Source: Candidatus Omnitrophota bacterium (GTDB lineage: Bacteria > Omnitrophota > Gorgyraeia > Zapsychrales > Zapsychraceae). Taken from it: a stretch of 64,000 nucleotides of DNA. The stretch spans positions 40,885 to 104,884 of the forward strand of contig JADFYJ010000007.1 in the NCBI GenBank assembly GCA_015233115.1, given 5' to 3'. This document shows positions 7,317-49,788 of this stretch, one piece after another; the stretch's first letter is position 1; every line of letters starts with the position of its first letter. The notes under the pieces were generated by a model. That model had not been told where the DNA came from. It did not search any database and saw nothing but the letters and a program-made list of their open reading frames with translations. Both the position numbers and the translations under genes were made by a program.

Positions 7317-8259
7317 TAAATTTTTAATAATGACCATTTTGATATGCTTTATTGCTGGAGGTTTTTGGTTCGTAAAAACGCGTAATAAAGCGAATGCCAA
7401 TACATCTAGCCAGGAAATTGCGCCAACCATTGGCAAGATTCAAACTTTTATTTCTACCACTGGAGATATCCTGCCGAAAAACCGTCTGGAAGTCAAGCCG
7501 CCGGTCAATGGCAGAATTGAAAGCGTAACAGTCAAAGAAGGCGACCATGTTAAAACCGGACAAATCGTAGCCTGGATGAGTTCAACCGACCGCGCCGCTT
7601 TACTCGATGCCGCTAGGGGAAAAAATGATCAATCATTAGAATATTGGCAAAATATATATAAACCGATTGCTTTAGTCGCGCCCATTGATGGCGACATAAT
7701 TGTCGCGACCATCCAACCTGGGCAAACCGTCACTGTATCCGATGCTGTTGTGGTCATATCTGATCAGCTGATCGCCCGCGCTCAAGTGGATGAAACAGAT
7801 ATAGGGAAAATCGTTTTAGGGCAAAAAGCAACTGTCACCTTGGACGCTTATCCGGACACCAAACTTAAAGCTGTGGTTGAACATTTATATTATGAATCAA
7901 CAACCGTCAACAATGTGACCATTTATAACGTTGATTTAACACTCGCGAATATTCCCGCGTTTTGCCGGTCAGGCATGAACGCGACGATTGATTTTAGAGA
8001 TAAATTTAAAAAAGATATTATGCTTTTGCCCGTAGATGTTGTTAAAGTTCAAAAAACCGGTGCTTACGTTATGGTTAAGACCGGACCAGGAAAGTCTGAA
8101 AAACGCACAGTCACAGTCGGGATAACGGACAATACCAATATAGAAATCGTCTCCGGCCTGACCACAAATGATATTGTGGTGGCCCAAAATAAAAAATTCG
8201 TTATGCCAAAATCAACCGGCGCAAATCCATTTATGCCGGCGAGACGGCCAAATAAATAA
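7306..8259 (+). CDS. Efflux transporter periplasmic adaptor subunit (HlyD/MacA-like)
   Basis: N-terminal TM anchor with biotinyl-lipoyl-like and beta-barrel segments. It lies immediately upstream of the macB-like gene. Confidence 0.65.
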   Translation: MRINKFLIMTILICFIAGGFWFVKTRNKANANTSSQEIAPTIGKIQTFISTTGDILPKNRLEVKPPVNGRIESVTVKEGDHVKTGQIVAWMSSTDRAALLDAARGKNDQSLEYWQNIYKPIALVAPIDGDIIVATIQPGQTVTVSDAVVVISDQLIARAQVDETDIGKIVLGQKATVTLDAYPDTKLKAVVEHLYYESTTVNNVTIYNVDLTLANIPAFCRSGMNATIDFRDKFKKDIMLLPVDVVKVQKTGAYVMVKTGPGKSEKRTVTVGITDNTNIEIVSGLTTNDIVVAQNKKFVMPKSTGANPFMPARRPNK

Positions 8260-8263
8260 GCAG

Positions 8264-8423
8264 GTAGTATGTAGCATGTCGTATGTAGTAAAAAAAATTG
8301 ATTTAAAAAATAAAAAACAAAAAAATGATAATTAAAAACCAAAAACTCATATTTCACGTTTTATATTTAAGCTTTTGTTTGTTTTTGTTTTTCTCTACAT
8401 ACTACATACTACGAACCACATAC
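8264..8423 (+). repeat. Inverted oligo-repeat pair (gtagtatgtagcatgtcgtatgtagta / ctacatactacatactacgaaccacatac) flanking an AT-rich spacer, with nested aaaaccaaaaac/gtttgtttttgttt arms
   Basis: The arms are reverse complements, read directly. They lie between the adaptor stop and the macB start. Confidence 0.7.
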
Positions 8424-8440
8424 TTATAAAATTGATACAT

Positions 8441-10411
8441 ATGAATACGATCGAAATTAAAAAAGTTAATAAAACTTATGGGACTGGCAAGATCGAAGTC
8501 CATGCTTTGCAGGATATTTCTTTGACGATCCAGCAGGGGGAATTTGTGGCGATCATGGGCGCTTCCGGATCTGGCAAGTCCACGCTGATGCATATTTTAG
8601 GCCTTTTGGACCGGCCTGATTCCGGCGAATATTTTCTCAATGGCCAGGAGGTCAGCAAGCTAACTGACCAAAATTGGGCTGTTTTACGCAACCAAAGCAT
8701 AGGTTTTGTATTTCAGCAATTTCATTTATTGGCTAGAATGAGCGCGTTCGATAACGTGGCCTTGCCATTGATTTACGGCGGAGACATGCAGTTAAAAGAT
8801 AATGCGCGGCTGCGGCTGATCGATGTTGGCTTAGAAGAGCGGATGAACCACAATCCCAATGAATTATCCGGCGGGCAGCAGCAGAGGGTGGCGATCGCCC
8901 GGGCCTTGATCCATGATCCATTGCTGATTTTAGCAGACGAACCAACTGGAAACCTGGATTCCAAAAGCAAGGAAGAAATTCTCGGTCTTTTTGAAAAATT
9001 AAATCAGCAAGGCAAAACTATTGTCATCGTGACTCATGAACCAGAAGTCGCGCGCCACGCCAAACGCGTCATTACTATGCGCGACGGAAAAGTGTTATCA
9101 GACATAACTTCAGCTCCACTAACTAAAGTTAAAATGACCAGCACAGCCCCTAATATCCCGCCTGCGCTTAAACCCGCAACAAAACAAAGCAGTATGAAAT
9201 TCCTGGATTATTCCCGGCAAGCTATCACCGCCATGATTGCTCATAAAATGCGCGCATTCTTATCCATTTTAGGAATTCTGATCGGCGTTGCCGCCGTAAT
9301 TGCCATGGTCGCGTTAGGCAGCGGAGCCCAGGAATCCATTGAGAAACAATTGGCGTCTTTAGGATCAAACCTTTTACTCGTTATGCCGGGATCATCCCAT
9401 GAGCATGGCGTATCTATGCAATCCGGCGCTAACACTAAATTTACTTTTCAAGATATTACGGCACTAAGTCAAGATTCGGAAAATATTGAACGTGTCAGTC
9501 CTGCAGTTTCCGGACGGACGCAAGTCGTATATGGTAGTAAAAACTGGAACACGTCCGTGGAAGGTTCTACCGCCAATTATGAACAGGTCAGAGCTGCCAC
9601 CCCTATGGCCGGTCGCTTTTTTACGGATGAAGAGGTCACCAGCCGCACCAAAGTTGTATTACTGGGAACAACCGTGGTTAAACAACTTTTTGATACAGAA
9701 GATCCTATCGGCAAAACCATTAAAATTAACCTCATCAATTTTCAAGTGATTGGCATTTTGCCCTCACATGGCGCAAACACGTTCCGTGACCAAGATGACA
9801 CGATGTTAGTTCCTATTACCACTGCCATGTACCGCTTGCTTGGCAAACAATATATTGATACAATCTACGTTCAAGCTCGGGGGCCACAGTTTGTTGATCC
9901 TGCGCAGGACGATATTGCCAAGATCATGAGTAAACAACACCATTTAGCTCCTAAAGATGAAGACAGCGCGTTTCAAGTTAGAAACATGAGTGATATGAAA
10001 GCCGCTTTAGAGTCCAGTACCAAGACTATGAGCATGCTCATTGGCGCGATCGCCGCGATTTCATTGCTGGTCGGTGGAATTGGAATCATGAACATTATGT
10101 TGGTTTCCGTTACAGAGCGAACCCGCGAAATTGGTTTGCGAAAAGCATTGGGTGCGAATAATAAAGATATTATGACCCAATTTCTAATTGAATCAATTTT
10201 GACCTCTTTAATCGGAGGGATATTAGGAATCATTGTGGGGACTGGAATTTCCGCGTTAATCACGATCGCGGCTGGCTGGGCGGTTAAAGTATCAATCATT
10301 TCGATGATCACCGCCACTTTGTTTTCCATGTTAGTTGGGCTTGTGTTTGGACTTTGGCCGGCACGGCAAGCATCTCGTTTAAATCCTATAGAAGCGTTGA
10401 GATATGAATAA
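8441..10411 (+). CDS. macB: MacB-type ABC transporter (fused ATPase and FtsX-like permease)
   Basis: Walker [10 protein letters not shown], the signature [15 protein letters not shown], and a C-terminal four-TM FtsX domain. The start is at MNTIEIKK; the track ORF extends upstream into the repeat. Confidence 0.85.
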
Positions 10412-11762
10412 AACTAAATTAACATTTATCTTTTTAATATTATTTTTTCTTTGTCAAAATAATATATCGAGAGCAGATCAACCTGCTCCGCAACAAATAG
10501 CAATTGTTCAGCAGTCCCTAAGTCTTAATGAAGCGATTCACTTTGCGTTGAAAAACAACCTCATCATGCGGTTAGCCAGGGAACGGATCAACGAAGCCAA
10601 AGGAAAAAGCACGTCCGGCAATTCTGATTTGTTGCCGCACATAGGCATAGAAGGGTATCAAATGAAAGTTCAGCGGTTTAATTTGCAAACCATGGGACTA
10701 CCCGGCCTTCTAGGGCCGTTCGACGCGTTTGATGCTCGTCTACAACTGGAACAACGGATCTTTGATTTGAGCGCCTTTTCTAAATCCAAAGCAGAAAACC
10801 TGGCGGTCGAAATCGCGCGTTATGGCGAAGATCTTGCTCACCGGCAGGTTATGACCCAAGCCATTATGGCGTATCTGAATGTTTTAAAGAATGCCGAATC
10901 GCTCAAAACCATTGATGAAAATATCAGCGTAGCCGAAAAATTTGTAAAACTTTCTGAACATCAACGGGCTGTCGGCATGGCCACTCAGGTTGATGAAGTC
11001 CGGGCAGAGACCCGTTTGGCGCAGGAAAAAGCGGCACGCGAAAAAATTTTATTTAATTTACAATCCGCGGATTTTAACCTGAAACGCGTGACTGGCATTG
11101 CCTTAGACTGCCCGTTACGCTTAACCGATACATTGCTATTTTTTGTCGAGCCTGCGTATCCGGTTCAAAAAACTCTTGATGAGGCATTCAATAACCGGGT
11201 AGAAATCACGATCGCGGAACAAAGAGTTGAGTATAAAAAATTAAAACTGCAGGAAGCTAAAAGCCTTCATCTGCCTAAGATATCATTAGTCGGTGATTAT
11301 GGAACATCAGGAGTTCGCATCAACCGGGACAAGCATGAAGTGGGAGAATTTGGCATCAAAGCCAGTTTCCCTATATTTGAAGGCGGAGCCATCGAAGGGC
11401 AGATCATGCAAGAAACCAGTATCAAGAAGCAGGAAGAAATGACCCGCGATGATGTGTCAATACAAATTGAAGAAGATGTCCGGTTATCTCTACAAATTCT
11501 TCAAACCAGCCTTCAAGCCGTATACGCGAATGACATTGCTCAAAAACTTTCTAGCCGTGAACTGGAATATACAAAAAATCAATATATCAATGGGCTGGAG
11601 GATAATTTAAAAGTCGATGCCGCGCAATCAGACCTTGCCCAAACCAAAGAAAACTATATAACCGCATTAGCTCAATATCATACCGGCCGGGTCAATTATT
11701 ATTCCGCGATTGGAAAATTAGAACAGTTCAGTCTTAATCAACCTGAGGTGAATCATGAGTAA
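10404..11762 (+). CDS. TolC-family outer membrane efflux protein
   Basis: Signal peptide and OEP repeats; overlaps the macB stop. Confidence 0.75.
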   Translation: MNKTKLTFIFLILFFLCQNNISRADQPAPQQIAIVQQSLSLNEAIHFALKNNLIMRLARERINEAKGKSTSGNSDLLPHIGIEGYQMKVQRFNLQTMGLPGLLGPFDAFDARLQLEQRIFDLSAFSKSKAENLAVEIARYGEDLAHRQVMTQAIMAYLNVLKNAESLKTIDENISVAEKFVKLSEHQRAVGMATQVDEVRAETRLAQEKAAREKILFNLQSADFNLKRVTGIALDCPLRLTDTLLFFVEPAYPVQKTLDEAFNNRVEITIAEQRVEYKKLKLQEAKSLHLPKISLVGDYGTSGVRINRDKHEVGEFGIKASFPIFEGGAIEGQIMQETSIKKQEEMTRDDVSIQIEEDVRLSLQILQTSLQAVYANDIAQKLSSRELEYTKNQYINGLEDNLKVDAAQSDLAQTKENYITALAQYHTGRVNYYSAIGKLEQFSLNQPEVNHE

Positions 11763-30650: not shown

Positions 30651-31400
30651 ATGAAAAAAATTCTGATTGTTGATGATAATGAAGACCTCCGAAGCGAAAT
30701 GCGCGATTTTCTTGATGAATACGAAACCATTGAAGCTTCAACAGGCGAAGAAGCTTTAAAAATATTAGGACGCGCGCATAATATTGGACTGGTCATTTTA
30801 GACGTTCGTATGCCCGGCATAACTGGTATTGATGTGCTGGAAGAACTCCGAAAAACTGAGCCCGAACTTGGCGTTATCATATTAACCGGCTTCAGTTCTA
30901 AAGATGTCGTCATTGATGCCTTAAAATCGCAAGCGAACGATTATATTGAGAAACCCATCAACATCCAAAAATTTCATGAATCTGTCAAAAAGATCATGGC
31001 TAAACAAAATGGCGAAAAAAATATCTCTGATCTCGACCTCTCTGGAAAAATGGCAAAAATTAAAGAATTTTTAGAAATTAACTGTTTCAAAAAAGTTTGC
31101 TTAGAAGATGCCGCCAGTATCGTTAATATGAGTCCTAAATACCTAAGCCGTATTTTTAAAGAGTCCCTAGGAGTAGGCTTCAACGATTACAAATTAAAAA
31201 TCAAAATTGAACGTGCACAAGAACTATTAACCCAATATGGCTATACTGTAAATCAAATATCATCAAAACTCGCCTATGAAAATACTGAATCATTTATCCG
31301 GCAATTTAAAAGATTTTGTGGAACCACCCCGTCAAGCTACCGACAAAGCATGAGCAAAACAAGCAAAATCAAGTCAAAAGCATTAGGCCAACGACCATAA
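30651..31400 (+). CDS. Response regulator with a C-terminal AraC-type HTH
   Basis: Receiver (DDxxxxR...D...MPGxxG...K) followed by an AraC HTH (SPKYLSRIFKE). Confidence 0.8.
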   Translation: MKKILIVDDNEDLRSEMRDFLDEYETIEASTGEEALKILGRAHNIGLVILDVRMPGITGIDVLEELRKTEPELGVIILTGFSSKDVVIDALKSQANDYIEKPINIQKFHESVKKIMAKQNGEKNISDLDLSGKMAKIKEFLEINCFKKVCLEDAASIVNMSPKYLSRIFKESLGVGFNDYKLKIKIERAQELLTQYGYTVNQISSKLAYENTESFIRQFKRFCGTTPSSYRQSMSKTSKIKSKALGQRP

Positions 31401-31548
31401 CTTATAACCTATAACCGATTACCTTCTTGTTATCCTGCCTTTTGTAGTAGAAATAAGTCAATAAATAGACGAACCCGCCAATTACCATTTTTTTGCTGCA
31501 AGATATAATGTCCCTAATTATAAAAATAATTTCTATTAAGAATGTACT

Positions 31549-31917
31549 ATGCCAAATAAACGAATACTGATTGTTGATAATGATAAAACATTTTTATCTG
31601 AATTAGGCGAAACTTTAGAACTTAGCGGATATGATATGGTCGTGGTTGACGATCCGCGAAAAACTATTGAAATGGCAGATCTATATGATATAAGTTTATT
31701 TTTGCTTGATCTAAAAATGCCCGCTCTCACTGGTTTTGAATTGGCCCATGAATTAAACCATATTTCACGTTTTTCGCATATTCCTATAATCGCCATGTCC
31801 GGTTACTACAAAACTGAATACGAATCAATATTTGAAACTTGTGGAATCAGAAAATGTTTAAAAAAGCCTTTTAAACCATTGGATTTAATCACGCAAATTG
31901 AAACCATTTTATTATAA
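31549..31917 (+). CDS. Single-domain response regulator (CheY-like)
   Basis: Receiver-domain motifs (IVDND, LDLKMP). Confidence 0.7.
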   Translation: MPNKRILIVDNDKTFLSELGETLELSGYDMVVVDDPRKTIEMADLYDISLFLLDLKMPALTGFELAHELNHISRFSHIPIIAMSGYYKTEYESIFETCGIRKCLKKPFKPLDLITQIETILL

Positions 31918-31941
31918 ACAATATTAATCAATGAGGTCATC

Positions 31942-32382
31942 ATGGAAAACATTAAAAATGAGTTGGTTAAACTTCTTAATCAGGCTTTAGAATTAGAACA
32001 TGCCGCGCGAATCCAGTATCTTGCTCATGCAGAACTGATTAAAGGCTTAAACGCCGAAAAAATCATTGAACGTCTTACTGAAATTGCCGCAGATGAAGAC
32101 AAGCACGAAAAAAAAATCCGCAATCTGATAGGCAACTATCTCGGAGGAGAACCGTCAATGGCCCTGGCTGCTACACATCGCGCTACTGAGATGATTGAAA
32201 TTCTTCAGACCAATTTAAAAGACGAGAAAGACGCCATAAATTTTTATAAAAAAATTTATAAAACAATTACTGAAAATAAAGAAAATTTACCTTATGAATT
32301 CGAAACGCTGGAACATGAAATTCGGCATATTATTTTAGATGAACAAGAGCATGCCAGCGAACTTTCCGTTTTATTGGAATAA
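31942..32382 (+). CDS. Ferritin-like diiron domain protein
   Basis: Paired E...EH/ExxH motifs (LELEHAA, DEDKHEK, LEHEIRH, EQEHASE). Confidence 0.55.
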   Translation: MENIKNELVKLLNQALELEHAARIQYLAHAELIKGLNAEKIIERLTEIAADEDKHEKKIRNLIGNYLGGEPSMALAATHRATEMIEILQTNLKDEKDAINFYKKIYKTITENKENLPYEFETLEHEIRHIILDEQEHASELSVLLE

Positions 32383-32451
32383 ATTTAAACATATTAAAAT
32401 TATCACGAAGCCCAACGTTCGATCAATTCATTAATTTGAAAAAATAAACGC

Positions 32452-34179
32452 ATGGATCCCACACCCACAGAATTTAATATCCGCATCGCAGGTGAAGCCG
32501 GTCAAGGGATAGAAACCTTTGGCTCTGCTTTGTGTCATATTTATAAAAAATCCGGCTTCCATATTTTCGCCAACCAAGATTATATGTCCCGAATCCGCGG
32601 CGGTAATAACTATTTTCAAATTAGAGTATCCGAAGCTGAAATTTTTTCTTGCCGGGAAAAAATTGATATCTTGGTCGCGTTAGATCTGCCCAGCATCTCA
32701 CTTCATCAATCAAACTTGCATAAAAACGGAATCATTCTATTAGATAAAGCAAAATTTAATATGACTCAAAATGAACCCAATTACTTTGATATTCCTTTAT
32801 TTGCCCTAGCACAAAAAATGGGGGGAAGCGAACTTTATGTTAATTCCATCATGTGCGGCATCATGGCTTATATTACCTCAGCAGAACTATCCCTTTTGCT
32901 TAAAACTACGCGAATCATCTTTAAAGACAAAACCGAAGAAATCATTAATAAAAATATTCTAGCCGTCAAGGCCGGATTTGATTTTGCTCAAAATTATTAT
33001 AAAGGAAAACTATTTAAAATTAATCCATCTGTCACAATTCCTCACTTATTGATGAACGGAAATGATGCCATAGCACTCGGAGCGATCAAAGCCGGATGCA
33101 AATTTTATTCCGCTTATCCGATGTCACCATCAACCAGCATTATGACAGTTGTCGCCCATTATGCTAAAAAATTTAATATCATTGTGGAACAAGCAGAAGA
33201 TGAAATTGCGGCGGTCAACATGGTCATTGGCGCCTCATTTGCCGGCGTTCGCTCCATGACGGCCACTTCTGGAGGAGGATTTGCTCTTATGGCTGAAGGC
33301 GTCAGTTTAGCAGCCATGACAGAAACTCCCCTGGTCATCGTTGACGCTCAAAGGCCAGCTCCAGCCACTGGTTTGCCAACGCGGACTGAACAAGCCGACC
33401 TTAATTTCCTGATCCATGCCGGTCATGGGGAATTTGCTAAAATTATTTTGGCTCCTGGAACGATTGAAGAAGCATTTACACTAACGATCCGGGCCTTTGA
33501 GTTGGCAGAACAATATCAAATTCCAGTTTTTATTCTCACAGATCAGCATCTAGCGGATTCATATAAAGACATTGACAATTTGGAAGGAAGGAATCAAAAA
33601 ATGGTTCGACACATAATCTCCAAAAATGAATCTATTAATTTACTAAACTACAAACGTTACCAAATGACCGAAACAGGAATTTCCCCCCGCGCTATCCCAT
33701 CATGGATTTCTCAACCGATTTATGTGGATAGTGATGAACATACCGAAGAAGGACATATCACCGAAGACGCAGACATACGTCGAAAAATGGTGGAAAAAAG
33801 GCTTTACCTAAAAAATAAGGGACTGCGAAACGAAATTTTAAAACAAAAAGCTTTTCAGCTTGAAAATGCTGATCTGATTTTACTAGGGTTTGGATCCACT
33901 TTTGGTGTGATGAAAGAAGCGTGTGAAAAAATTTCAAATCATCGCGTAGGATTCATCCATCTATCCCAAGTATGGCCCTTTCCCACAGATGAAATATTGG
34001 AATATTTAAAAGGAGCAAAAAAAATATATACCATCGAAAATAATGCGACAGGACAACTGGCAGGAATTATCCGACAAGAAACTACCTTAAAAATTCATGG
34101 TTCTATTTTAAAATTTGATGGCAGGCCATTTAATTTAGATTTGGTTATTGAAATAATAAACAAGGCTTTCAACAAATGA
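32452..34179 (+). CDS. korA: 2-oxoacid:ferredoxin oxidoreductase subunit alpha (KorA-like, fused gamma/alpha)
   Basis: A 575-aa OFOR alpha architecture, co-transcribed with the TPP-binding beta subunit. Confidence 0.75.
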   Translation: MDPTPTEFNIRIAGEAGQGIETFGSALCHIYKKSGFHIFANQDYMSRIRGGNNYFQIRVSEAEIFSCREKIDILVALDLPSISLHQSNLHKNGIILLDKAKFNMTQNEPNYFDIPLFALAQKMGGSELYVNSIMCGIMAYITSAELSLLLKTTRIIFKDKTEEIINKNILAVKAGFDFAQNYYKGKLFKINPSVTIPHLLMNGNDAIALGAIKAGCKFYSAYPMSPSTSIMTVVAHYAKKFNIIVEQAEDEIAAVNMVIGASFAGVRSMTATSGGGFALMAEGVSLAAMTETPLVIVDAQRPAPATGLPTRTEQADLNFLIHAGHGEFAKIILAPGTIEEAFTLTIRAFELAEQYQIPVFILTDQHLADSYKDIDNLEGRNQKMVRHIISKNESINLLNYKRYQMTETGISPRAIPSWISQPIYVDSDEHTEEGHITEDADIRRKMVEKRLYLKNKGLRNEILKQKAFQLENADLILLGFGSTFGVMKEACEKISNHRVGFIHLSQVWPFPTDEILEYLKGAKKIYTIENNATGQLAGIIRQETTLKIHGSILKFDGRPFNLDLVIEIINKAFNK

Positions 34180-35033
34180 ACGTATCCGATTTACAATCTC
34201 ATGACGAAATTGCCTGGTGTCCAGGATGCGGCGATTTTGGAATTTTAAATGCCGTCAAAAAAGCCCTGGTTAAACACAACCGCGACCCAAAAGATATTTT
34301 ATTAGTTTCAGGCATAGGGCAGGCAGCCAAGCTTCCACACTATATCCGCTGCAATTGTTTTAATGGCCTGCATGGACGCGCGCTTCCTCCGGCAGTAGCC
34401 GCTAAAATTGTAAACCGGAACCTTACCGTTATCGTCACAACAGGTGAAGGAGATTGCTACGGAGAAGGGGGCAATCATTTTTTACATAATATTAGAAGGA
34501 ATGTTGATATTACAGTCATTGTTCATGACAACCACATTTATGGTTTAACTAAAGGCCAAGCCTCTCCCACGACAGACCTGGGATATCAAACAAAAATCCA
34601 AACTTCTGGTGTTATTGTGGAGCCATTTAATCCCTTAGAAGTCGCGATCGCTTTGGGCTGTGGTTTTGTGGCACGTGGATACTCCGCGGACTCCGATCAT
34701 CTGGCAGAACTTATTCTAGCGGGAATAAATCACCGAGGTTTTTCTTTAATCAATGTATTACAGCCCTGCGTTTCTTTTAATCATAAAAATACGTATGAAT
34801 GGTATTCAAAAAGAATTTATAAAGTAGATCAGGAAGCTGATTATGATGTCTCCAATAAATTTTCCGCTTACCATAAATGTGGTGAATGGGATGACCGCAT
34901 TCCCATCGGAATTATTTATAAAACCGAAAGAACCACTTATGAAGATCGAAGCGGGATCAATGAAAAACAACCTTTAGTGGACGAGATAATAAATAATATA
35001 AACATCGAAAATATACTCGATGATTTTATATAA
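34176..35033 (+). CDS. korB: 2-oxoacid:ferredoxin oxidoreductase subunit beta (TPP-binding)
   Basis: CPGCGDFG and GDG...E TPP-binding motifs. Confidence 0.8.
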   Translation: MNVSDLQSHDEIAWCPGCGDFGILNAVKKALVKHNRDPKDILLVSGIGQAAKLPHYIRCNCFNGLHGRALPPAVAAKIVNRNLTVIVTTGEGDCYGEGGNHFLHNIRRNVDITVIVHDNHIYGLTKGQASPTTDLGYQTKIQTSGVIVEPFNPLEVAIALGCGFVARGYSADSDHLAELILAGINHRGFSLINVLQPCVSFNHKNTYEWYSKRIYKVDQEADYDVSNKFSAYHKCGEWDDRIPIGIIYKTERTTYEDRSGINEKQPLVDEIINNINIENILDDFI

Positions 35034-35178
35034 TATGATCCCGCTACGGTCACTGGGTCGTGACCTTGCTTGAACAGCAAGCTTCGCGTTGCTCAGCTCC
35101 GCGGGATAAATTCGTGCGGCTGACTTGATGTCGCGATAAACGCTCCATAAGTCAGGCACTCATAATAAGGAGGTAAGT

Positions 35179-35520
35179 ATGTCACCATGTGATCCCAAAA
35201 CCGGCGTTTGTGAAGTTCCACAAAGCAGTTCTAGCCCAGCATCGTCTTGCGCTAGCAAATGCGCCTGCGGCAGTGAATCTTGCTGCACTGACCCAATCGC
35301 GTGTCAAACGAAAATGTTGACCTGCGCTTTTTGGGAAGCTAAAAAAGCCGTGATGGTGGATATTCTCAAATTAAAAATCCAGAAAAGCTGCGGCAAAAAA
35401 ATGGAAATGGCTGCTGATGCCATCGTGGAAGCTATGGAAGTCAAAAAAGATTCCATGATCGCAATGGCCAAAGCCAAAGAAGAATTCATGAATAAACTAA
35501 AAAGTATGTGCAAAGAATAA
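35179..35520 (+). CDS. Cysteine-rich small protein (14 Cys in 113 aa), function unknown
   Basis: Strong RBS aaggagg. N-terminal C-x-C-rich region followed by a Lys/Met/Ala-rich helical region. Confidence 0.55.
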   Translation: MSPCDPKTGVCEVPQSSSSPASSCASKCACGSESCCTDPIACQTKMLTCAFWEAKKAVMVDILKLKIQKSCGKKMEMAADAIVEAMEVKKDSMIAMAKAKEEFMNKLKSMCKE

Positions 35521-35528
35521 CAAAAATA

Positions 35529-35745
35529 GCATGTAGTATGTCGTATGTGGTATGTAGCAAAAACAAAAAACGTAGAAGAAAATTAATAGGCTGTCATTCC
35601 CGCGAAAGCGGGAATCCAAAAAAAAAATTATTTATTACTGGATCCCCGATTTAAACACTCGGGGATGACAAAACGAACTTTTCGACTTATTTTAAATTTC
35701 ACTTTCGTTTTTCTCGCTACATACCACATACGACATACTACATGC
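35529..35745 (+). repeat. Inverted oligo-repeat pair (gcatgtagtatgtcgtatgtggtatgtagc / gctacataccacatacgacatactacatgc) enclosing the double-hairpin element at 35592-35670
   Basis: Near-perfect 30-bp reverse-complement arms, read directly. Confidence 0.75.
35592..35670 (+). repeat. Double-hairpin repeat element, copy 1 (tgtcattcccgcgaaagcgggaatcca...tggatccccga...tcggggatgaca)
   Basis: Three copies share more than 85% identity in the hairpin modules. Hairpin 1 is tcccgc-GAAA-gcggga (GNRA loop); hairpin 2 is ccccga-N8-tcgggg; the outer tgtcat/atgaca closing pair is conserved. Confidence 0.8.
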
Positions 35746-35759
35746 TTTAAAGGAGTTCT

Positions 35760-36260
35760 ATGGATATCTACGATTATGCCATGCAATTAGAAAAAGAAGG
35801 CGAGGATCTTTATAAAAAATTTGCTGATACGACAAACGATCCGATGTTAACTAATATTTTTACTTGGCTGGCCCAACAGGAAAAACAGCACTATGACATA
35901 TTTAAAAAAATGAAAGAAGATCAGCCGATCCGTTTAGATCCGCCGGTTTCATTCATAAATGATGTTAAAAACATATTTTCTGAATGGAAAAAACAAAAAG
36001 TACCATCACTCGCCACTCAAGCACAGGCTGATGTTTACCGGACGGCGTTGACTGTTGAACAAAAAAGTATTGATCTTTACACTAAAGATGCGATTCTTAT
36101 TCATGAACCTGAAAAAGAAAAAATTTTTCTTCGTCTGGCGTCAGAAGAAAAAAAACATTTTGTCATAGTTGAAAATATTATTGAATTTATCAGTAAGCCT
36201 GAACACTGGGTGGAACACGCCGAATTCACCCATGATTTGGAAAAAGATTATTATTTATAA
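35760..36260 (+). CDS. Ferritin-like/rubrerythrin-family domain protein
   Basis: ExxH pairs (QQEKQHYD, EEKKHFV) on a four-helix bundle pattern. Confidence 0.5.
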   Translation: MDIYDYAMQLEKEGEDLYKKFADTTNDPMLTNIFTWLAQQEKQHYDIFKKMKEDQPIRLDPPVSFINDVKNIFSEWKKQKVPSLATQAQADVYRTALTVEQKSIDLYTKDAILIHEPEKEKIFLRLASEEKKHFVIVENIIEFISKPEHWVEHAEFTHDLEKDYYL

Positions 36261-36273
36261 AAAAGCGGTTTTT

Positions 36274-36347
36274 AGTTGTTGGTTGGTGGTTGTTGGTAAA
36301 AAATTCGATTCACTTTTCCAAAAACCAAAAACAATCAACCATAAACC
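36274..36347 (+). repeat. Inverted oligo-repeat pair (agttgttggttggtggttgttggt / ccaaaaaccaaaaacaatcaaccataaacc)
   Basis: G/T-rich arm and its A/C-rich approximate reverse complement, read directly. Confidence 0.6.
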
Positions 36348-36467
36348 AATATTTCCAAATTTATTTAATAAGTCTTGACGATTTCTAATTATGCGCAACA
36401 ATAGCATAATTAACATTTCGATGGATGATAGATGATGGCTTAACCACAAACCAACCGTATTTATCTG

Positions 36468-37430
36468 ATGAATCGCCCTTACCATAATCCGACAAATAAT
36501 TATAATCAGCGCCGTTCTATGCAGCGTCCAGCGTATCATCCGCCGGTTCGCAATTTAAGCGACGCCGAGAAAAAATTCATGAGCGGAACAGTCATTGATC
36601 CATGCCCACGGATCCGCTTAGAAGACGGCTCTGACAAACTCAGCATGCGCGCCATGGATTTGATTTGTCCGATCGGCATGGGACAGAGGGGATTGATTGT
36701 CGCGCCGCCCGGATCAGGGAAAACCACCTTTCTTAAAGATATTTGTCAAGCCGTCATTAAAAGCTGTCCACAAATCAAACTGTATTGCCTGCTGATTGAC
36801 GAAAGGCCGGAAGAAGTCACTGACTTTAAACGCGCGGTATCAGCAGAAATCCGCTCATCGTCTTCTGATCAGAGCTATGATCAACATGTGGCGGTCGCTG
36901 ATGAATTAATGAGGCAAGTGGTCAGCGAAGCAGGGAATGGAGAGAATGTGATGGTGTTAATTGATTCACTGACTCGTCTTTCCAGAGTCCATAACGCGGA
37001 GCAGCGTAACAGCGGCAGGACGTTATCTGGCGGCATGGATGCCCGCGCGCTTGAAGTCCCCAGACGTATTTTTGGTTCAGCCCGTAAAATCGAAAACGGA
37101 GGATCACTTTCCATTCTGGCTACTATTTTAATCGAAACCGGCAGCCGCATGGATGAAGTGATATTTGAAGAATTCAAAGGCACAGGGAACATGGAAATTG
37201 TACTTTCCCGTGAAATCGCTAACCATAGAATTTATCCAGCCATTAACATTAGCCGCAGTGCCACCCGCAAAGAAGAATTGCTTTTAAGCCCTGATGAGCT
37301 TGAACCTGTCCGCAATATCAGGCGTGCCTTAATCGGATTAAACCAGGTTGAAGCCGCCCAAACCTTGGTTGATATGCTTCGAAAATTTCCCACCAATAAA
37401 GAACTTCTGCAACGACAAAGTACAGAGTAG
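36468..37430 (+). CDS. rho: Transcription termination factor Rho, lacking the N-terminal OB-fold RNA-binding domain
   Basis: GQRGLIVAPPGSGKTT (Walker A), LIDERPEEVT, Q-loop and R-loop regions and a C-terminal GTGNMEIVLSR are all present. Only about 45 residues precede the ATPase core, against about 130 in canonical Rho. Confidence 0.8.
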   Translation: MNRPYHNPTNNYNQRRSMQRPAYHPPVRNLSDAEKKFMSGTVIDPCPRIRLEDGSDKLSMRAMDLICPIGMGQRGLIVAPPGSGKTTFLKDICQAVIKSCPQIKLYCLLIDERPEEVTDFKRAVSAEIRSSSSDQSYDQHVAVADELMRQVVSEAGNGENVMVLIDSLTRLSRVHNAEQRNSGRTLSGGMDARALEVPRRIFGSARKIENGGSLSILATILIETGSRMDEVIFEEFKGTGNMEIVLSREIANHRIYPAINISRSATRKEELLLSPDELEPVRNIRRALIGLNQVEAAQTLVDMLRKFPTNKELLQRQSTE

Positions 37431-37600
37431 AGAGTACAAAGTACAGAGTAAAAAACAAGACAAAATATTTTAAAAAATATAATTATAAAATCTAAAAATT
37501 TTTTTAAATTTCGATCCAAATCAACTTATTTGCTCACTCCAATTTAATCTATTTTTTTAATTTTCACTCTGTACTCTGCGTACTCTGCGTCTCTGTACTG
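37419..37600 (+). repeat. Inverted oligo-repeat pair (agtacagagtagagagtacaaagtacagagta / cactctgtactctgcgtactctgcgtctctgtactg) flanking a 110-bp AT-rich spacer; the left arm overlaps the rho stop
   Basis: Reverse-complementary gtacagagta units, read directly. Confidence 0.7.
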
Positions 37601-37683: not shown

Positions 37684-37890
37684 ATGGCAACATTAAACAA
37701 GGAAGAATTACTTAAAAACCCAAAAGTCAAAGCAGAAATTGACCGATATAAATGGTGCGAAAGCGAAAAAGCCGGACATGATATCGGTATTGATAAAGCT
37801 GTCAATGACTGGTTTAAAATTCATGCTGAAAAATGGGTAGCCAAAAATCTACCTGCGCCTAAAAAAACTCCGACATTTAAATTATTCTAA
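37684..37890 (+). CDS. Small hypothetical protein (68 aa)
   Basis: Strong RBS ggagggg; KWCESEKAGHDIG motif not assigned to a family. Confidence 0.5.
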   Translation: MATLNKEELLKNPKVKAEIDRYKWCESEKAGHDIGIDKAVNDWFKIHAEKWVAKNLPAPKKTPTFKLF

Positions 37891-40487: not shown

Positions 40488-40558
40488 GCGGGCGTAGTTC
40501 AGTGGTAGAATGCAAGCCTTCCAAGCTTGTTACGTGGGTTCGATTCCCATCGCCCGCT
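40488..40558 (+). tRNA. tRNA-Gly (anticodon TCC)
   Basis: Acceptor gcgggcg/cgcccgc, anticodon stem caagc/gcttg, loop cttccaa, T-loop ttcgatt. Confidence 0.85.
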
Positions 40559-40669
40559 TTTTTTCCCGGAAAGGGAATCGAAGGGAGCGGAGCAAGATGC
40601 GACGAATAGGAGCATCTGGCTTGCGAAGCGAGTGGCCGACCCGAAGGGCGCCGATTCCCATCGCCCGCT
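40559..40669 (+). ncRNA. tRNA-Gly-linked 3' element: hairpin (gatgc-GACGAATAGGAG-gcatc) + gcgagtggccgacccgaag + ggcgcc + duplicate of the last 17 nt of tRNA-Gly + T-run
   Basis: Same architecture as the tRNA-Tyr element. The 3' end repeats gattcccatcgcccgct, followed by tttttt. Confidence 0.55.
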
Positions 40670-40701
40670 TTTTTATTTCATCATCCACCTACGGCTTTCA
40701 T

Positions 40702-41301
40702 ATGAAAAATCTCAGACCCCTTATCTTGACTTTAATCCTTGTTTTATCAAGTCCCATCGTATACGCTGCACCTGTTAATTATTTGATCACTCCTAACAAA
40801 ACTGAATTGATATTTTTAGGTACCTCTACACTGCATGCATTTCATGGCGACTGTAAATCGTTTAAAGGCGAACTCCAATTTACTGAAAAACCACAATCAG
40901 CTCCTGACATTTCCGGCAGAGTCGTTGTTGATGTGAACATGATGACCACGGGTAATAAAACGATGGATCTTAAAATGTTTCAAATGCTTCAAAACGACCA
41001 ATTTCCCATTATTGTATATGAAATCCAAAAATTTATTCCAACAACAAAAACATTAACTGAAGAATCCATACCGGGAAAACTGATCGGACAATTAACGATC
41101 CGTAAAATAACTTTGCCCATTGAATGTGAAGTTGTTGTTAGAAAAACAGTCCGCGGTGAATACGATCTGGAAGGGAAGTCAAAATTAAGTTTAATTGAAT
41201 TCCAAATGAAACCGCCAACCGTATTAAAAATTCTTAACGTGCATGATCCTGTTGGAATTATTTTTACAGCAACCCTGGAACCCAATCTTCAAAAACCGTG
41301 A
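40702..41301 (+). CDS. YceI-family periplasmic protein
   Basis: Signal peptide plus ...TELIFLGTSTLHAFHGDCKSFKGEL..., characteristic of YceI-like domains. The track ORF's N-terminal extension overlaps tRNA-Gly and is rejected. Confidence 0.6.
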   Translation: MKNLRPLILTLILVLSSPIVYAAPVNYLITPNKTELIFLGTSTLHAFHGDCKSFKGELQFTEKPQSAPDISGRVVVDVNMMTTGNKTMDLKMFQMLQNDQFPIIVYEIQKFIPTTKTLTEESIPGKLIGQLTIRKITLPIECEVVVRKTVRGEYDLEGKSKLSLIEFQMKPPTVLKILNVHDPVGIIFTATLEPNLQKP

Positions 41302-46746: not shown

Positions 46747-49700
46747 ATGAATTTAAAAAATTTTAAACAAACTCAGTTTTTCCGTCTCATTGCTTGCTGG
46801 ATTTTATGCAATTTTTTAATTGCATCTTTTATGCCGCCGCAAGGGGCTTGGGCGCAGACTGTTCTGAATTTGCCAATTCCAGGCACAATGCTGACAACTA
46901 CGCCAGCATATACGCCAATCATGGTAAAAGGTCTGCAGATTCACCCTGAAAACCCGCTGTTATTCGATTTTATTGTTGATACAGGCAAGTCCGGGCTTAA
47001 AGTAGATAGCTCCAATTTTAAAACCGAATCTCAAAAACTTATTAAATATTTTTTAGCTTCCCTGACTATCAAAGAGGAAAATTTATGGGTCAACTTATCG
47101 CCCTATGAAAAAAACCGGATTATGCCTAAAGATTTGAGTCAAACCGAACTCGGACGGGATATGCTGGCGCAAGATTATATTTTAAAACAATTAACCGCGT
47201 CTTTAATTTATCCTGAAAAAGAATTAGGGAAAAAGTTTTGGGACGCCGTATATTTAAAAATTTATGAAAATAGAAGAGAGAAAATAGAAGATAGACCAAC
47301 ACCAAAAAACAAATCGACAACAACGATCGCTTCTAATCTATCTTCTCCCGTCTATCATCTATTATCTGATAATTTAGACCTTCCAACCAACATATTGAGC
47401 AAAGTCTGGATCGTGGCAGATAAAGCTAAAGTGCTTGAAAAAAACAATACAGCCTATATTGTCGGCGCACATCTAAAAGTGCTTTTGGATACCGATTATT
47501 TGGCAAAACAAATGGCACCGGCATCCAAAAGCACAGCCCAAGAACAAATAGAGCCGCAAATCATGCGTCAAATCATCATTCCTGAAATCGAACGCGAAGT
47601 GAACGAAGGCGCGCATTTCGCCCAATTACGCCAAATGTTTCATTCCATGATCTTGGCCGCTTGGTATAAACAAACCATTAAAAATTCACTGCTTAATCAA
47701 GTGTATAGCAATAAATCAAAAACAAATGGCGTTCAGGTTGACGATCTTGCTATTAAAGAAAAAATTTATCAGCAATATTTAGACGCTTATAAAAAAGGTG
47801 TGTTTAACTATATCAAAGAAGATTATGATTCTGCCAACCAGCAAATAACCTCCCGAAAATATTTCTCCGGAGGAGAAGATTTCGCGATGTTAAAAAATGT
47901 CGAACGAGAAACTAAACTTGTAAAAGGAGATCAAAATCCGGACGTCCCAATCGGTGATACCGCCTTGGTATCCTTTGATATTCAAAAAGCTACAAACCCT
48001 GATCGTGCCCTGCTCAACACTTCAGAGTTAACCATGTCCAAATTCTCGACCACAGAAGAACCGGGAATCAAAATTATTGATCATATTATATTTCATTGGG
48101 AAGGGAAAGAAGTGCTGTTGCTTTTAAATGCTGCCCAAAAAATAACTAAAGGGTATAGTTTAATTTATGATGTTTTTATTGATCAAAAAGCAACAAAAAC
48201 TCTGACCGTTCATCTTCATCCAGTAAATGATAAAATGATTGTTAAATCGTTTGATTATATTTTTGAAGAAAACAAAGACTTCGAAAACGTGCTTCATCAC
48301 TGGCTTAACTCACAAATACACTTACCCTGGGATGGCTCTTTCTTTTCTAAATCAACAACTGAACCAACAACTGCGCCAACTCCAGAACTAACGATTTATC
48401 CTAAAACCATATTGCCTAAAGCAACACATCACTTTACATTACAGCATGAAGCGTCTGCTATATTCGAAGAGCAAGGAACAGAACATCCGCTTAAACTTAC
48501 TATAGAAAGAGCTGATGAACGCTATCAGAAACATGTATATTTTGTCAAAAAAGAAAATGGCCATGGTGAACAATCCTATACCCTTCCTCACGAGCCTGAT
48601 GTAGCGGACAGCATTCCGGCTATTTTTTGGAGATACATAGGAGACAGTGATGAAACCGAAATTGTTTTTAACAATAAATCGACGAACCCGTTTATCATGA
48701 CCCTCACAAATCCCATTGATCAAGCCATGATGGATTCATCAAACGATTATTTAACAGCTAACCTGCCATTTTCAATAGCGGAAAGCATTGTTTCGACTGT
48801 TTTAAAACAAAAAAATTTTACTTGGCAAACTAAAGACAAATTAAAAAACGAATTGTTAAATTACATTATCCAACACGTGAATTCAGATAAATTAATAACT
48901 TTTGTAGAAAATGTCCTGACCAATGCTTTAACTCAATATGTCAGCATACCAGAAATTAATCCGCAAAATCCAGCAGAAACTGAGCATTGGCGCATTAATA
49001 ATGAACGAAAACGTCAGATTTTTGAATTTCTCCAAGGGATAAATTCTAGAATTGTAAAAATCGGCCGTTTAAGTGATAAAAAAATTGCTGTCAGCCTTTG
49101 GATCACTCCCATTATTGCCAAACAAACTCAATTTGAACCATATTTTGCTGAAAATATTTTATGGTCCCAAGTGGCATCTGGTGTCGCAGAACAGACTATT
49201 CGTAACCTCCAAGATAGTTTTGTTAAATTAAAATTATTTGATATTAAAAACGACAAACTAACGCTTTCCACTATTAGTAAAAACGAACATGATGAAAATA
49301 TACGCATCTTAAATTTTGATTCCCCTGAAAACTCTGCTAAATTGGAGATTCGCTATAAAGATCCTGAGATGAATGGCAAAGGGGAGAGATCATTATCTTA
49401 CAAATTTATTGTCAAAGGCCAACCCCGAGCTATAAAATTTATTAAAATATTTTCAAATAAAGAAGAAGCAAGGCAAATATTTGACTACCAATATCTGCCC
49501 AATAGACCTACGGATAAAACGTTGAAGTTATTGACAACAGACATACTTTTTCATGGAAAAATGATAGACGCGGCTATGGCCGCTAAAGCAGAAATAAAAC
49601 AAATCAATGGCGGCATTGATCTCAATTCCAAAAATATGAGCATAGATATTACTAACCCTTTGACTATCTCAGGGTCTAAGCCTCTGATTAAATTTGACCC

Positions 49701-49788
49701 GGGTATGATCGCGGAATTTGAAGCTGGCGATTTTTCAGGGGTAACTTTTAAGATAATCAGCATCATACCCATTCAAAATACCCTTTGA
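46747..49788 (+). CDS. Large secreted hypothetical protein (1013 aa); the N-terminal 350 aa are paralogous to the ORF at 62723
   Basis: Signal peptide. The conserved block LIKYFLASLT..ENLWVNLSPYEK.RI.PK...QTE.GRD.LAQDY.LKQ.TASL.YPE is shared with the window-end ORF. Confidence 0.6.
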   Translation: MNLKNFKQTQFFRLIACWILCNFLIASFMPPQGAWAQTVLNLPIPGTMLTTTPAYTPIMVKGLQIHPENPLLFDFIVDTGKSGLKVDSSNFKTESQKLIKYFLASLTIKEENLWVNLSPYEKNRIMPKDLSQTELGRDMLAQDYILKQLTASLIYPEKELGKKFWDAVYLKIYENRREKIEDRPTPKNKSTTTIASNLSSPVYHLLSDNLDLPTNILSKVWIVADKAKVLEKNNTAYIVGAHLKVLLDTDYLAKQMAPASKSTAQEQIEPQIMRQIIIPEIEREVNEGAHFAQLRQMFHSMILAAWYKQTIKNSLLNQVYSNKSKTNGVQVDDLAIKEKIYQQYLDAYKKGVFNYIKEDYDSANQQITSRKYFSGGEDFAMLKNVERETKLVKGDQNPDVPIGDTALVSFDIQKATNPDRALLNTSELTMSKFSTTEEPGIKIIDHIIFHWEGKEVLLLLNAAQKITKGYSLIYDVFIDQKATKTLTVHLHPVNDKMIVKSFDYIFEENKDFENVLHHWLNSQIHLPWDGSFFSKSTTEPTTAPTPELTIYPKTILPKATHHFTLQHEASAIFEEQGTEHPLKLTIERADERYQKHVYFVKKENGHGEQSYTLPHEPDVADSIPAIFWRYIGDSDETEIVFNNKSTNPFIMTLTNPIDQAMMDSSNDYLTANLPFSIAESIVSTVLKQKNFTWQTKDKLKNELLNYIIQHVNSDKLITFVENVLTNALTQYVSIPEINPQNPAETEHWRINNERKRQIFEFLQGINSRIVKIGRLSDKKIAVSLWITPIIAKQTQFEPYFAENILWSQVASGVAEQTIRNLQDSFVKLKLFDIKNDKLTLSTISKNEHDENIRILNFDSPENSAKLEIRYKDPEMNGKGERSLSYKFIVKGQPRAIKFIKIFSNKEEARQIFDYQYLPNRPTDKTLKLLTTDILFHGKMIDAAMAAKAEIKQINGGIDLNSKNMSIDITNPLTISGSKPLIKFDPGMIAEFEAGDFSGVTFKIISIIPIQNTL

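Follow-up and report, generated by a model that had tools for sequence, protein, structure and literature searches.

We found that a contig of a Candidatus Omnitrophota bacterium encodes a Rho-family ATPase that retains the entire Rho motor and has no N-terminal head, and that this headless Rho represents a whole family and not a one-off deletion in the rho of one genome. The gene lies at positions 36468..37430 on the + strand of the 64-kb stretch of DNA analysed here (hereafter the window) and is complete in the ORF list, with an ATG, 320 codons and a stop, exactly where the original prediction, made from the sequence alone, had placed it. Rho is the textbook case of a ring helicase that owes its specificity to a crown of OB folds, which reads C-rich rut RNA ahead of ring closure. 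On balance, we favour the reading that the headless Rho is functional, serving as a specialised second RNA translocase of the Rho type, one that would load without rut-specific recognition.

The ORF is 100% identical to NCBI MBF0478882.1 across the 303 aa of the latter. This annotated product (P0001) begins MQRPAYH, taking as its start an alternative ATG at Met18 (36519..36521, + strand). The L083 protein, which is 79% identical, and other homologues begin with an MRPY/MRNF motif equivalent to the ATG at 36468, and this comparison favours the latter as the probable true start over Met18, in agreement with the original prediction. In the 320-aa protein, PF00006 at aa 60–265 was the sole Pfam match, and neither the OB domain (PF07497) nor the helix bundle (PF07498) was matched even at E <= 1; a positive control for the OB domain, P0122, scored 118 bits. 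The NCBIfam Rho models aligned only to aa 34–315, through their profile positions 130–411/413 (NF006886: 371 bits versus a cut-off of 315, profile coverage 130–411), the alignment with PDB Rho chains opened at E. coli residue 137, corresponding to aa 41, and E. coli Rho 133–414 was matched by tblastn at 46% identity. Based on these alignment starts, 33–40 residues stand ahead of the Rho-homologous part, compared with about 45 in the original prediction; that the N-terminal helical/OB domain is missing and Rho homology runs only from the linker onward (profile position 130, E. coli ~133–137) was borne out. In the AF2 model, the linker is preceded by no more than 28 disordered residues and a single short helix. 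The score with the TIGR00767 equivalog was 355.1 bits, under its trusted cut-off of 509.45. The best FliI model reached 75.5 bits versus a cut-off of 619, F1 models gave ~20 bits, and T3SS ATPases in the PDB matched at E = 1e-14 versus 1e-81 for Rho. Membership in a defence system was also considered and rejected, as the PADLOC match, to mad8 at 23.8 bits, was at the level of the P-loop only.

The ATPase and secondary-site core is complete, as had been predicted. Its elements on the + strand are a Walker A/P-loop APPGSGKTT (36702..36728; APPKAGKTM in E. coli), in columns that do not vary across the family; DERPEEV (36798..36818), which contains the catalytic Glu (E. coli E211) next to an Arg (R212) and is the same in E. 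coli and canonical Omnitrophota Rho; Walker B VLIDSLTR (36954..36977; LLDSITR in E. coli), in which D166, S167, T169 and R170 are family-invariant; a Q-loop, NAEQRNSGRTLSGGMD, of the secondary (translocation) RNA site (36993..37040), which aligns to E. coli 275–290 with K283 replaced by R and T286 by S; an R-loop TGSRMD (37137..37154; TGSKMD in E. coli), in which K326 is replaced by R, likewise in canonical Omnitrophota Rho; and an Arg-finger segment SATRKEE (37257..37277; SGTRKEE with R366 in E. coli), in which T266 and R267 are family-invariant. R353 of E. coli Rho is also conserved. The AF2 monomer model adopts the Rho-CTD fold with a pLDDT of 90.8 and fits onto the CTD of E. coli Rho with an rmsd of 1.4 A over ~283 columns; confidence was reduced in the Q-loop, as expected of a flexible loop. 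The surface helices differ from those of canonical Rho (STFDEP is replaced by SSSDQSY and W381 is lost), and the altered positions could include partner-binding sites. Upstream of the motor, the inter-domain linker and CTD entry (TVIDPCPRIRLEDGS...MRAMDLICPIGMGQRG; 36588..36692, + strand) align to E. coli Rho 137–175 and form a clade-specific signature, from which probe A1 was taken. They are preceded by a conserved short helix motif, NLSDAEKKFMSG (36552..36587, + strand; family consensus xDEAExxFxAG with an invariant F37), which aligns to '...RNKILFENL' of E. coli Rho, is modelled by AF2 as a helix at aa 32–39 and stands where canonical Rho has the last residues of its NTD and the start of the linker.

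The place of the head is occupied by an N-terminal tail of 28 residues (MNRPYHNPTNNYNQRRSMQRPAYHPPVR; 36468..36551, + strand), which is predicted to be disordered (AF2 pLDDT 53–54 for aa 1–20) and has a net charge of +5. It opens with the family motif M-[RK]-[NP]-[FY]-[NHR], bearing an aromatic F/Y at position 4. A tail was found in nearly all of 89 loci, with a family composition of R 20%, P 15%, S 10%, N 9% and H 8%, almost no D/E, a median net charge of +6 and a dN/dS of ~0.27. More divergent, independent OB-less Rho-like proteins with Arg/Gly-rich tails were also found (P0241, P0248, P0253, P0276, P0284 and P0320). The MAG labels of the more divergent OB-less examples are Hydrogenedentes and Sericytochromatia.

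The headless layout is common to >200 relatives in Candidatus Omnitrophota, counted as the best 120 database matches (69–100% identity) plus 88 fetched loci. The best 120 matches among 5.8 billion database proteins were all 285–376 aa long and PF00006-only, and nearly all named entries among them are labelled Omnitrophica/Omnitrophota. Probe A1 retrieved 314 relatives from JGI metagenomes, and the architecture recurs in NCBI, JGI, ENA and Logan assemblies. In 89/89 independent loci a stop codon stands 22–112 codons ahead of the conserved DPSPR motif, which excludes a frameshift or assembly artefact as the source of the short form. The core evolves under strong purifying selection (dN/dS 0.054), and among 69 homologues 97 alignment columns show no variation. 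As a member of this large Omnitrophota family, the gene in the window is thus neither broken nor an assembly error. The first candidate of the original prediction, a Rho variant that lacks the N domain and loads RNA differently, is therefore supported by a conserved family with intact motor motifs, the change in loading being what such an architecture would entail.

Compared with known systems, the protein shares the linker and the whole RecA-type CTD with canonical Rho (E. coli; PDB 1PV4, 3ICE, 5JJI, 8Q3N; TIGR00767/NF006886) but lacks the equivalent of E. coli residues 1–~130 (helix bundle PF07498 and OB PF07497), carries the ~28-aa cationic disordered tail instead, lies outside the coaE-rho-rpmE-prfA locus and falls below the TIGR00767 cut-off. 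A parallel in layout is offered by short Rho forms that have already been described as 'group B' (D'Heygere et al. 2013) or Type 4 (PMC11347177) and are modelled as NF041509 paralog_Rho2; these are likewise N-terminally shortened, are often a second copy beside a conserved canonical Rho and are frequent in the PVC group, a related group in which two rho genes are common (PMC11347177). However, they are without the helix bundle but keep the OB domain (P0311, PF07497 59.6 bits), whereas the headless family is without the OB domain too, and NF041509 gave only 316.4 bits versus its cut-off of 628 on the headless Rho, aligning at positions 77–358 of 360. In a tree of CTD sequences, short, OB-less and Type-4-like (group B/Type 4) proteins grouped together, split from all canonical Rho with 81% bootstrap, a result of simple NJ, a fast distance method in which long-branch attraction could create such a non-canonical cluster. 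The signature residues DS[IL]TR and TD[MF] were tried as separators of the paralogue types and rejected, since they did not divide them cleanly. By having the Rho ATPase domain alone, the headless protein fits the definition of 'Rho-like' (Moreira et al. 2024), a class of ATPase-domain-only proteins set apart from 'functional Rho' (PMC11347177). The available text of that census, which covers 2730 genomes, treats 'Rho-like' proteins in the supplement only, presumably as non-functional, and makes no mention of Omnitrophota (PMC11347177); the conservation, the tail and the breadth of the headless family are not described in that text. Disordered segments are also known from Type 2 Rho (Bacteroides thetaiotaomicron, Mycobacterium tuberculosis NID, the Clostridium botulinum prion-like domain), where low-complexity R/N/Q-rich regions lie near the RNA-entry face; proposals for their role are an increase in RNA affinity without specificity, or phase separation (PMC11347177; PMC12360218). 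Type 2 Rho has these regions on top of a complete NTD and OB, whereas the headless tail is much shorter and replaces both.

Canonical Rho (418 aa) is abundant and extremely conserved across Omnitrophota, and both Rho forms are present in MAGs labelled Omnitrophota. The headless Rho is 52–54% identical to the canonical Rho of the phylum, no closer than to the Rho of other phyla. The two forms also differ in genomic context. Canonical Omnitrophota rho was always found in the arrangement GT5-coaE-rho-rpmE-prfA, whereas short rho occupied several other contexts and never coaE-rho-rpmE-prfA in the window and 88 loci; coaE, rpmE and prfA were absent near short rho throughout this set, and no flanks were common to canonical and short rho loci. 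Because canonical rho exists in Omnitrophota, the headless family is probably a paralogous lineage. No conserved operon partner, that is, no universal neighbour, was seen across the short rho loci; lineage-specific neighbours were a 336-aa secreted protein, ABC-F, Kdp genes, AsmA and a 68-aa ORF. The last lies downstream in the window (37684..37890, + strand), has a weak DUF4032-like match (PF13224, E = 4e-4, below cut-off) and is 78% identical to a 68-aa gene directly after short rho in L083, the closest relative. It was not found beside short rho in lineages other than these two, and it is a possible operon partner.

By homology with canonical Rho, the headless protein would form a Rho-like hexameric ring, hydrolyse ATP in an RNA-dependent manner, translocate 5'->3' on RNA via the secondary site and presumably terminate transcription. 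Since it has no crown of six YC-binding clefts, YC-rich rut sites would be unreadable to it. First capture of RNA could instead be driven by charge and lack specificity, with six cationic tails (~+36 per ring) at the usual place of the crown. Alternatively or additionally, loading may be helped by partners, through NusG-type ring closure or contact with RNAP, and in some lineages a neighbouring cold-shock protein may possibly aid it. In most genomes the headless Rho would be a second, specialised paralogue alongside canonical Rho, with a task such as the termination or clearance, in certain conditions, of RNAs that have little structure, are not translated or form R-loops, and it is probably not the housekeeping terminator. 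In E. coli, removal of the first 27 residues of Rho abolishes RNA binding (PMC11347177), so a Rho with no head at all might have lost its classical function, barring compensation by the tail or a partner. On the other hand, E. coli PBS mutants terminate genome-wide with the help of NusG (Shashni et al. 2014, PMC4150792), a precedent for rut/PBS recognition being largely dispensable with NusG-assisted ring closure, although these are point mutants with the head present in a laboratory situation, whereas the headless Rho is a natural architecture.

Another possibility, which we hold tentatively, is that canonical rho has been lost in the carrier lineages including this genome, leaving the headless protein as the sole Rho and the only housekeeping terminator, acting rut-free. 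A second rho was detected in the 64-kb window neither by tblastn nor by an NTD HMM, the ~0.9 Mb of flanks of 89 short rho loci contained neither canonical rho nor coaE/rpmE/prfA, and ~200 short and 240 canonical Rho entries had no contig, assembly or accession in common. In NCBI, the accession batches of the two forms do not overlap, short forms being in MBF04/05 and canonical ones in MDD, MCM and MCK, among others. The core dN/dS is as expected for an essential gene, and a Type-4 short Rho is reportedly the sole Rho of Fusobacterium (PMC11347177). Sampling is weak, however: each Rho list compared shows the best 120 entries of a family that is far larger, and ~1% of a genome is covered by the flanks. 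The short rho was never at the canonical locus, is only about half identical to canonical Rho and clusters with paralogue-type Rho, which fits an old paralogue and not in-situ truncation of the orthologue, and the abundance and extreme conservation of canonical Rho across the phylum also argue against its replacement. As to provenance, the widely sampled short Rho P0073 comes from peat and the canonical Rho P0223 from groundwater; the canonical Rho P0429, on a long contig, belongs to a different assembly.

A broader reading, of which we are more doubtful, would make these proteins a distinct class of Rho motor spanning Omnitrophota and the divergent examples labelled Hydrogenedentes and Sericytochromatia, in which the OB crown was replaced by an Arg-rich disordered tail. 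Such motors would be the sole Rho in at least some lineages and would carry out sequence-blind termination, loaded by electrostatics, by NusG/RNAP or by a cold-shock protein in trans that would serve as a detachable primary binding site.

It seems unlikely that the headless protein works as a modulator subunit, entering mixed hexamers with canonical Rho in which the PBS crown would be thinned, so as to tune or inhibit rut-dependent termination, or in which heads would be borrowed in trans. The CTD, which holds the hexamer interfaces, is 46–54% identical to that of canonical Rho with a superposable fold, and hetero-hexamers of long and short Rho have been proposed in the literature (PMC11347177). 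However, its divergence from the canonical CTD of the phylum together with the surface changes suggests that the interfaces have diverged, a conserved cationic tail with an aromatic motif is hard to explain for a 'blank' subunit, and the two forms shared no contig, assembly or accession among the entries compared.

We consider it very unlikely that the protein is one half of a split Rho, with the head supplied in trans by a separate OB/cold-shock protein docking on the ring. The primary site of Rho is itself a cold-shock-like OB fold, and a 66-aa CSD (PF00313) gene was found on the same strand within 10 kb of short rho, mostly 0.5–3.3 kb downstream, in 5/16 lineage groups with enough flank, including 13/13 such loci of the largest group, against a rough chance expectation of ~3% per lineage group. 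However, there was no CSD gene in the 64-kb window or near short rho in 11/16 lineage groups, and a single syntenic lineage contributes the bulk of the signal. In sequence, the CSD proteins are of the ordinary CspA-like kind and do not match the Rho NTD profile, and no standalone Rho_N/Rho_RNA_bind gene was present in any short rho flank examined.

Finally, the DNA around the gene was searched for a missing head. The gene upstream encodes a rubrerythrin-like protein and ends at 36260, leaving an intergenic spacer of 207 bp (36261..36467) in which no Rho-like coding was found in any frame. The E. coli NTD gave no tblastn match in the 64-kb window, and an NTD profile HMM of 236 sequences, run against six-frame translations of the window and flanks, was negative over their 1.0 Mb (best E = 0.72), the best match within the window (E = 5.4) lying away from short rho. 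The same HMM recovered 8/8 positive controls and picked up a genuinely frameshifted rho, L008, at E = 3e-51. As the original prediction had stated, then, the upstream DNA supplies no head in any frame, and the split or frameshifted NTD that it had proposed to look for around 36260–36470 is not there. The oligo-repeat pair that it had pointed out in the spacer corresponds to an imperfect GT-rich/AC-rich hairpin at ~36267–36347 (−21.2 kcal/mol), which is too weak (z = −1.9) to be retained as a regulatory element and has no evident bearing on the gene; a promoter-like site at 36375–36402 (9/12 match) is no better than chance for the region. Although the product is ~100 aa shorter than canonical Rho and the window derives from a metagenome-assembled genome, a decaying duplicate, a pseudogene or a frameshift/assembly artefact of a normal rho, as had been raised originally, can be practically dismissed, given the same architecture in >200 independent sequences, a dN/dS of 0.05, the invariant columns, intact motifs and confident fold, the upstream stop in every locus and the lack of any NTD remnant in any frame by a search that detects a real frameshift. 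The accompanying proposal that a full-length rho elsewhere would make this copy a decaying duplicate fails even if a second rho exists, because the short rho is not decaying.

Should the headless Rho of Omnitrophota be merely a second paralogue with a minor role, it would extend the known range of Rho variants only incrementally. Censuses of 'functional Rho' count only proteins with both RNA-binding and ATPase domains, so the headless family would be missed or mis-scored in surveys of which bacteria have Rho. A large family that keeps the motor and discards the crown under strong purifying selection is a natural experiment, and at ~300 aa its members are compact enough to serve as constructs in which ring closure can be dissected free of PBS allostery. 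The family further suggests that a folded RNA-binding domain can be replaced by a short, cationic, disordered tail.

The 320-aa ORF at 36468..37430 (+) was present exactly as described in the original prediction, and searches with Pfam, NCBIfam, solved structures and tblastn confirmed that the N-terminal domain (NTD) of Rho is missing, only the part corresponding to the C-terminal ATPase/translocase domain (CTD) being aligned. The only Pfam match, at aa 60-265, was the generic nucleotide-binding domain ATP-synt_ab, and Rho_N (PF07498) and Rho_RNA_bind (PF07497) were absent from the ORF even at E <= 1. The NCBIfam Rho equivalog NF006886 gave 371 bits (cut-off 315) but matched aa 34-315 only to profile positions 130-411 of 413, and TIGR00767 gave 355 bits, under its cut-off of 509. 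Alignment to solved Rho structures began at E. coli residue 137, and tblastn with an E. coli Rho sequence matched residues 133-414 to the ORF at 46% identity, with no other match in the 64-kb window. The upstream rubrerythrin-like gene ends at 36260, leaving 207 bp, less than a 130-aa domain would need, and this stretch held no Rho-like frame, as had been predicted. The protein is NCBI MBF0478882.1, annotated from Met18; since the N-terminal tail of the family starts M-[RK]-[NP]-[FY]-[NHR], comparison of the sequences favours the ATG at 36468 (MNRPYHNP...) as the true start.

The best 120 matches among 5.8 billion proteins were all 285-376 aa long, 69-100% identical and PF00006-only, and the named entries among them were nearly all Candidatus Omnitrophica/Omnitrophota. 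A 43-aa probe from the clade-specific linker region (A1) retrieved 314 relatives in JGI metagenomes, of which 80 were combined with 8 from other look-ups and the window into 89 loci, with 10-kb flanks retrieved around them.

Omnitrophota also encode a textbook Rho (419-470 aa, GFGFLR OB motif), found in four GTDB species representatives so labelled (L021, L026, L027 and L069). Two seeded searches gave at least 240 close relatives of it (78-100% identity); many of the 240 listed are named Omnitrophica/Omnitrophota, and all but one, a truncated 387-aa match, carry PF07498, PF07497 and PF00006. Every canonical locus examined showed the context GT5-coaE-rho-rpmE-prfA-prmC, in which short rho was never found (89 loci). 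The short CTD was 52-54% identical to canonical Omnitrophota Rho and equally distant from the Rho of other phyla, and neighbour-joining of 62 sequences over 279 columns (100 bootstraps) separated the short clade, other OB-less proteins and Type-4-like Rho from all canonical Rho including that of Omnitrophota, with 81% support, long-branch attraction being possible. This identity and this split point to an old paralogue rather than in-situ truncation of canonical rho. We consider it fairly likely that both genes co-occur in one genome; it seems unlikely that short Rho serves as the sole Rho of its lineages.

A two-rho situation as reported for the PVC group (PMC11347177) is illustrated by a Verrucomicrobiae MAG (L022), in which two rho-like genes lie ~8 kb apart (10001-10816 (+) and 19438-18716 (-)), one a 718-aa form and the other a second, divergent copy scoring 197 bits against the query. 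In one Omnitrophota lineage, the canonical gene (L021, 9419-10858) has a frame that stays open for ~50 codons before the helix bundle, so that the first ATG gives 469 aa and the NCBI start 417 aa; if translated, this would be an R/P/K/E-rich N-terminal extension (MKPQKTERPERPERPKPTRADSNSRYPTHNSRPK...) whose composition recalls the short Rho tail.

A frameshift or assembly artefact, one alternative to a genuine variant, predicts a detached NTD in an adjacent frame. Such a case was found in an uncultured Bacteroidetes long-read MAG (L008), where rho is split over adjacent, overlapping frames (NTD at 9541-9975, HMM E = 3e-51; CTD at 9962-10852), a frameshift or sequencing error mimicking a short Rho. 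The HMM used there, a profile of 236 canonical Rho NTDs run on six-frame translations, also recovered the NTD in 8/8 control loci of other phyla, whereas no match was obtained in 1.0 Mb of short-rho loci including the window (best E = 0.72). In 89/89 loci a stop closed the frame 22-112 codons ahead of the conserved DPSPR motif. The artefact was therefore rejected. A pseudogene remnant was rejected likewise, because family members compared pairwise give a dN/dS of 0.054 in the core (0.27 in the tail; values approximate, dS ~1.3) and an alignment of 69 sequences has 97 invariant columns.

When aligned with E. coli Rho and the canonical Rho of Omnitrophota, the protein showed an intact motor: Walker A (APPGSGKTT), DERPEEV with the catalytic Glu and Arg, Walker B (DSLTR), the Q-loop (SGRTLSGG, with K283 -> R and T286 -> S relative to E. 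coli), the R-loop (TGSRMD), the R353-equivalent and the Arg finger (TRKEE). Surface helices carry family-specific changes (STFDEP -> SSSDQSY, W381 lost). AlphaFold2 with the family alignment gave a model (pLDDT 90.8, pTM 0.86) with residues 1-~28 unstructured, a short helix at 32-39 and reduced confidence at the Q-loop, which Foldseek superposed on the E. coli Rho CTD (rmsd 1.4 A, ~283 columns). The tail, usually ~27 aa, is characteristic of the short-Rho family, rich in Arg (20%), Pro (15%), Ser (10%), Asn (9%) and His (8%) with acidic residues nearly nil, and has a median net charge of +6. Family, selection, motif and NTD-search evidence thus support the reading preferred in the original prediction, an N-domain-less Rho variant.

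In the largest (peat) lineage the gene order is kdpFABC-kdpDE, a 336-aa secreted protein, short rho, ABC-F, csp and dsbD; in other lineages AsmA/DUF748 lies upstream. The 336-aa protein (L081, 8988-9998; L084, 9001-10011) begins with a signal-peptide-like segment and matched no Pfam family. In 29/89 loci its ORF, preceded by kdpFABC-kdpD-kdpE, either stops a few bases from the start codon of short rho or overlaps it, an arrangement that suggests translational coupling in that lineage. In one lineage (L087, 1-15400) short rho lies inside an island rich in toxin-antitoxin/restriction-type genes (two ParE, BrnT, Fic, NmeDI_C, Smr), a hint that it can sit in accessory regions.

The window order PhoU-PHO4...DUF1016-AsmA agrees with that of the closest relative, L083, where an AsmA-family gene directly adjoins short rho (7152-10004), whereas in the window (30651-36260) a ~5.9-kb block is inserted between them. 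It encodes two response regulators, a ferritin-like protein, 2-oxoacid:ferredoxin oxidoreductase (PFOR) alpha/beta, a Cys-rich 113-aa ORF and the rubrerythrin-like protein. The 113-aa ORF (35179-35520), whose N-terminal half is Cys/Ser-rich (…CASKCACGSESCCTDPIAC…), matched nothing in Pfam or PADLOC and is a possible metal-binding protein. Downstream of short rho, a 68-aa ORF (37684-37890) shows 78% identity to its positional counterpart in L083 and matches DUF4032 weakly, below the threshold. The two intergenic spacers that flank the rubrerythrin-rho pair contain long imperfect inverted repeats of short oligo 'words' (GTATGT..., AGTACAGAG...), one at 35528-35573/35701-35746 (46-nt arms, 87% complementary, 127 nt apart) and another at 37437-37469/37546-37578, also 37415-37450 (33-nt arms, 76% complementary, 76 nt apart); their length and spacing are too great for simple intrinsic terminators. 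Elsewhere in the window, tRNA-Gly(tcc) (40488-40558) runs into the 5' end of the YceI-like gene if its longest ORF (40510-41301) is taken, so that the gene probably starts further downstream, and a 1013-aa ORF (46747-49788) matched no Pfam family at E <= 1e-5.

In 5 of the 16 lineage groups whose flanks are long enough, short rho has a CspA-like gene on its own strand at a distance of at most 10 kb; in the largest group this holds for 13/13 such loci. This 66-aa cold-shock-domain gene (L081, 11420-11620; L084, 13093-13293; L086, 8395-8595; also L099, L114, L117/L119 and others) is mostly 0.5-3.3 kb downstream, and provides a lead for RNA binding to short Rho in trans. No cold-shock-domain gene was found in the 64-kb window, so a trans-acting Csp would not be a general solution.

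The established base is an intact headless motor with a conserved cationic tail under strong selection. From this we infer that short Rho would form a hexameric ring translocating on RNA through its Q and R loops, and would be unable to read YC/rut signals. Six tails (~+36 per ring), emerging where the crown of OB sites usually lies, might capture RNA non-specifically; alternatively or additionally, partners might load the ring, for which there is a precedent in E. coli: Rho defective in the primary RNA-binding site continues to terminate at most sites if NusG helps with isomerisation (PMC4150792).

Rho is divided in the literature into Type 1 (typical), Type 2 (disordered insertions), Type 3 (C-terminal extension) and Type 4 or 'group B', which lacks the N-terminal helix bundle but keeps the OB domain, proteins with a single Rho domain being classed apart as 'Rho-like' (PMC11347177). 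The NCBIfam 'paralog_Rho2, short form' also keeps the OB domain, whereas the window protein lacks it and scores half the cut-off. Our literature search found no paper tying Rho to Omnitrophota. Beyond the short clade, HMMER matches among 1.84 billion cluster representatives were almost all full-length Rho (~50-53% identity), but a few were further OB-less, PF00006-only proteins with Arg/Gly-rich tails (P0241, P0244, P0248, P0253, P0276, P0284 and P0320), some of them labelled as coming from Sericytochromatia and Hydrogenedentes MAGs. Replacement of the head by a cationic low-complexity tail is thus recurrent, which supports a functional role for the tail. The window gene belongs to a large OB-less branch of the Rho family that had not been characterised before. 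Current schemes would catalogue the gene at best as 'Rho-like', and its interest would be higher if some lineages depend on short Rho alone.
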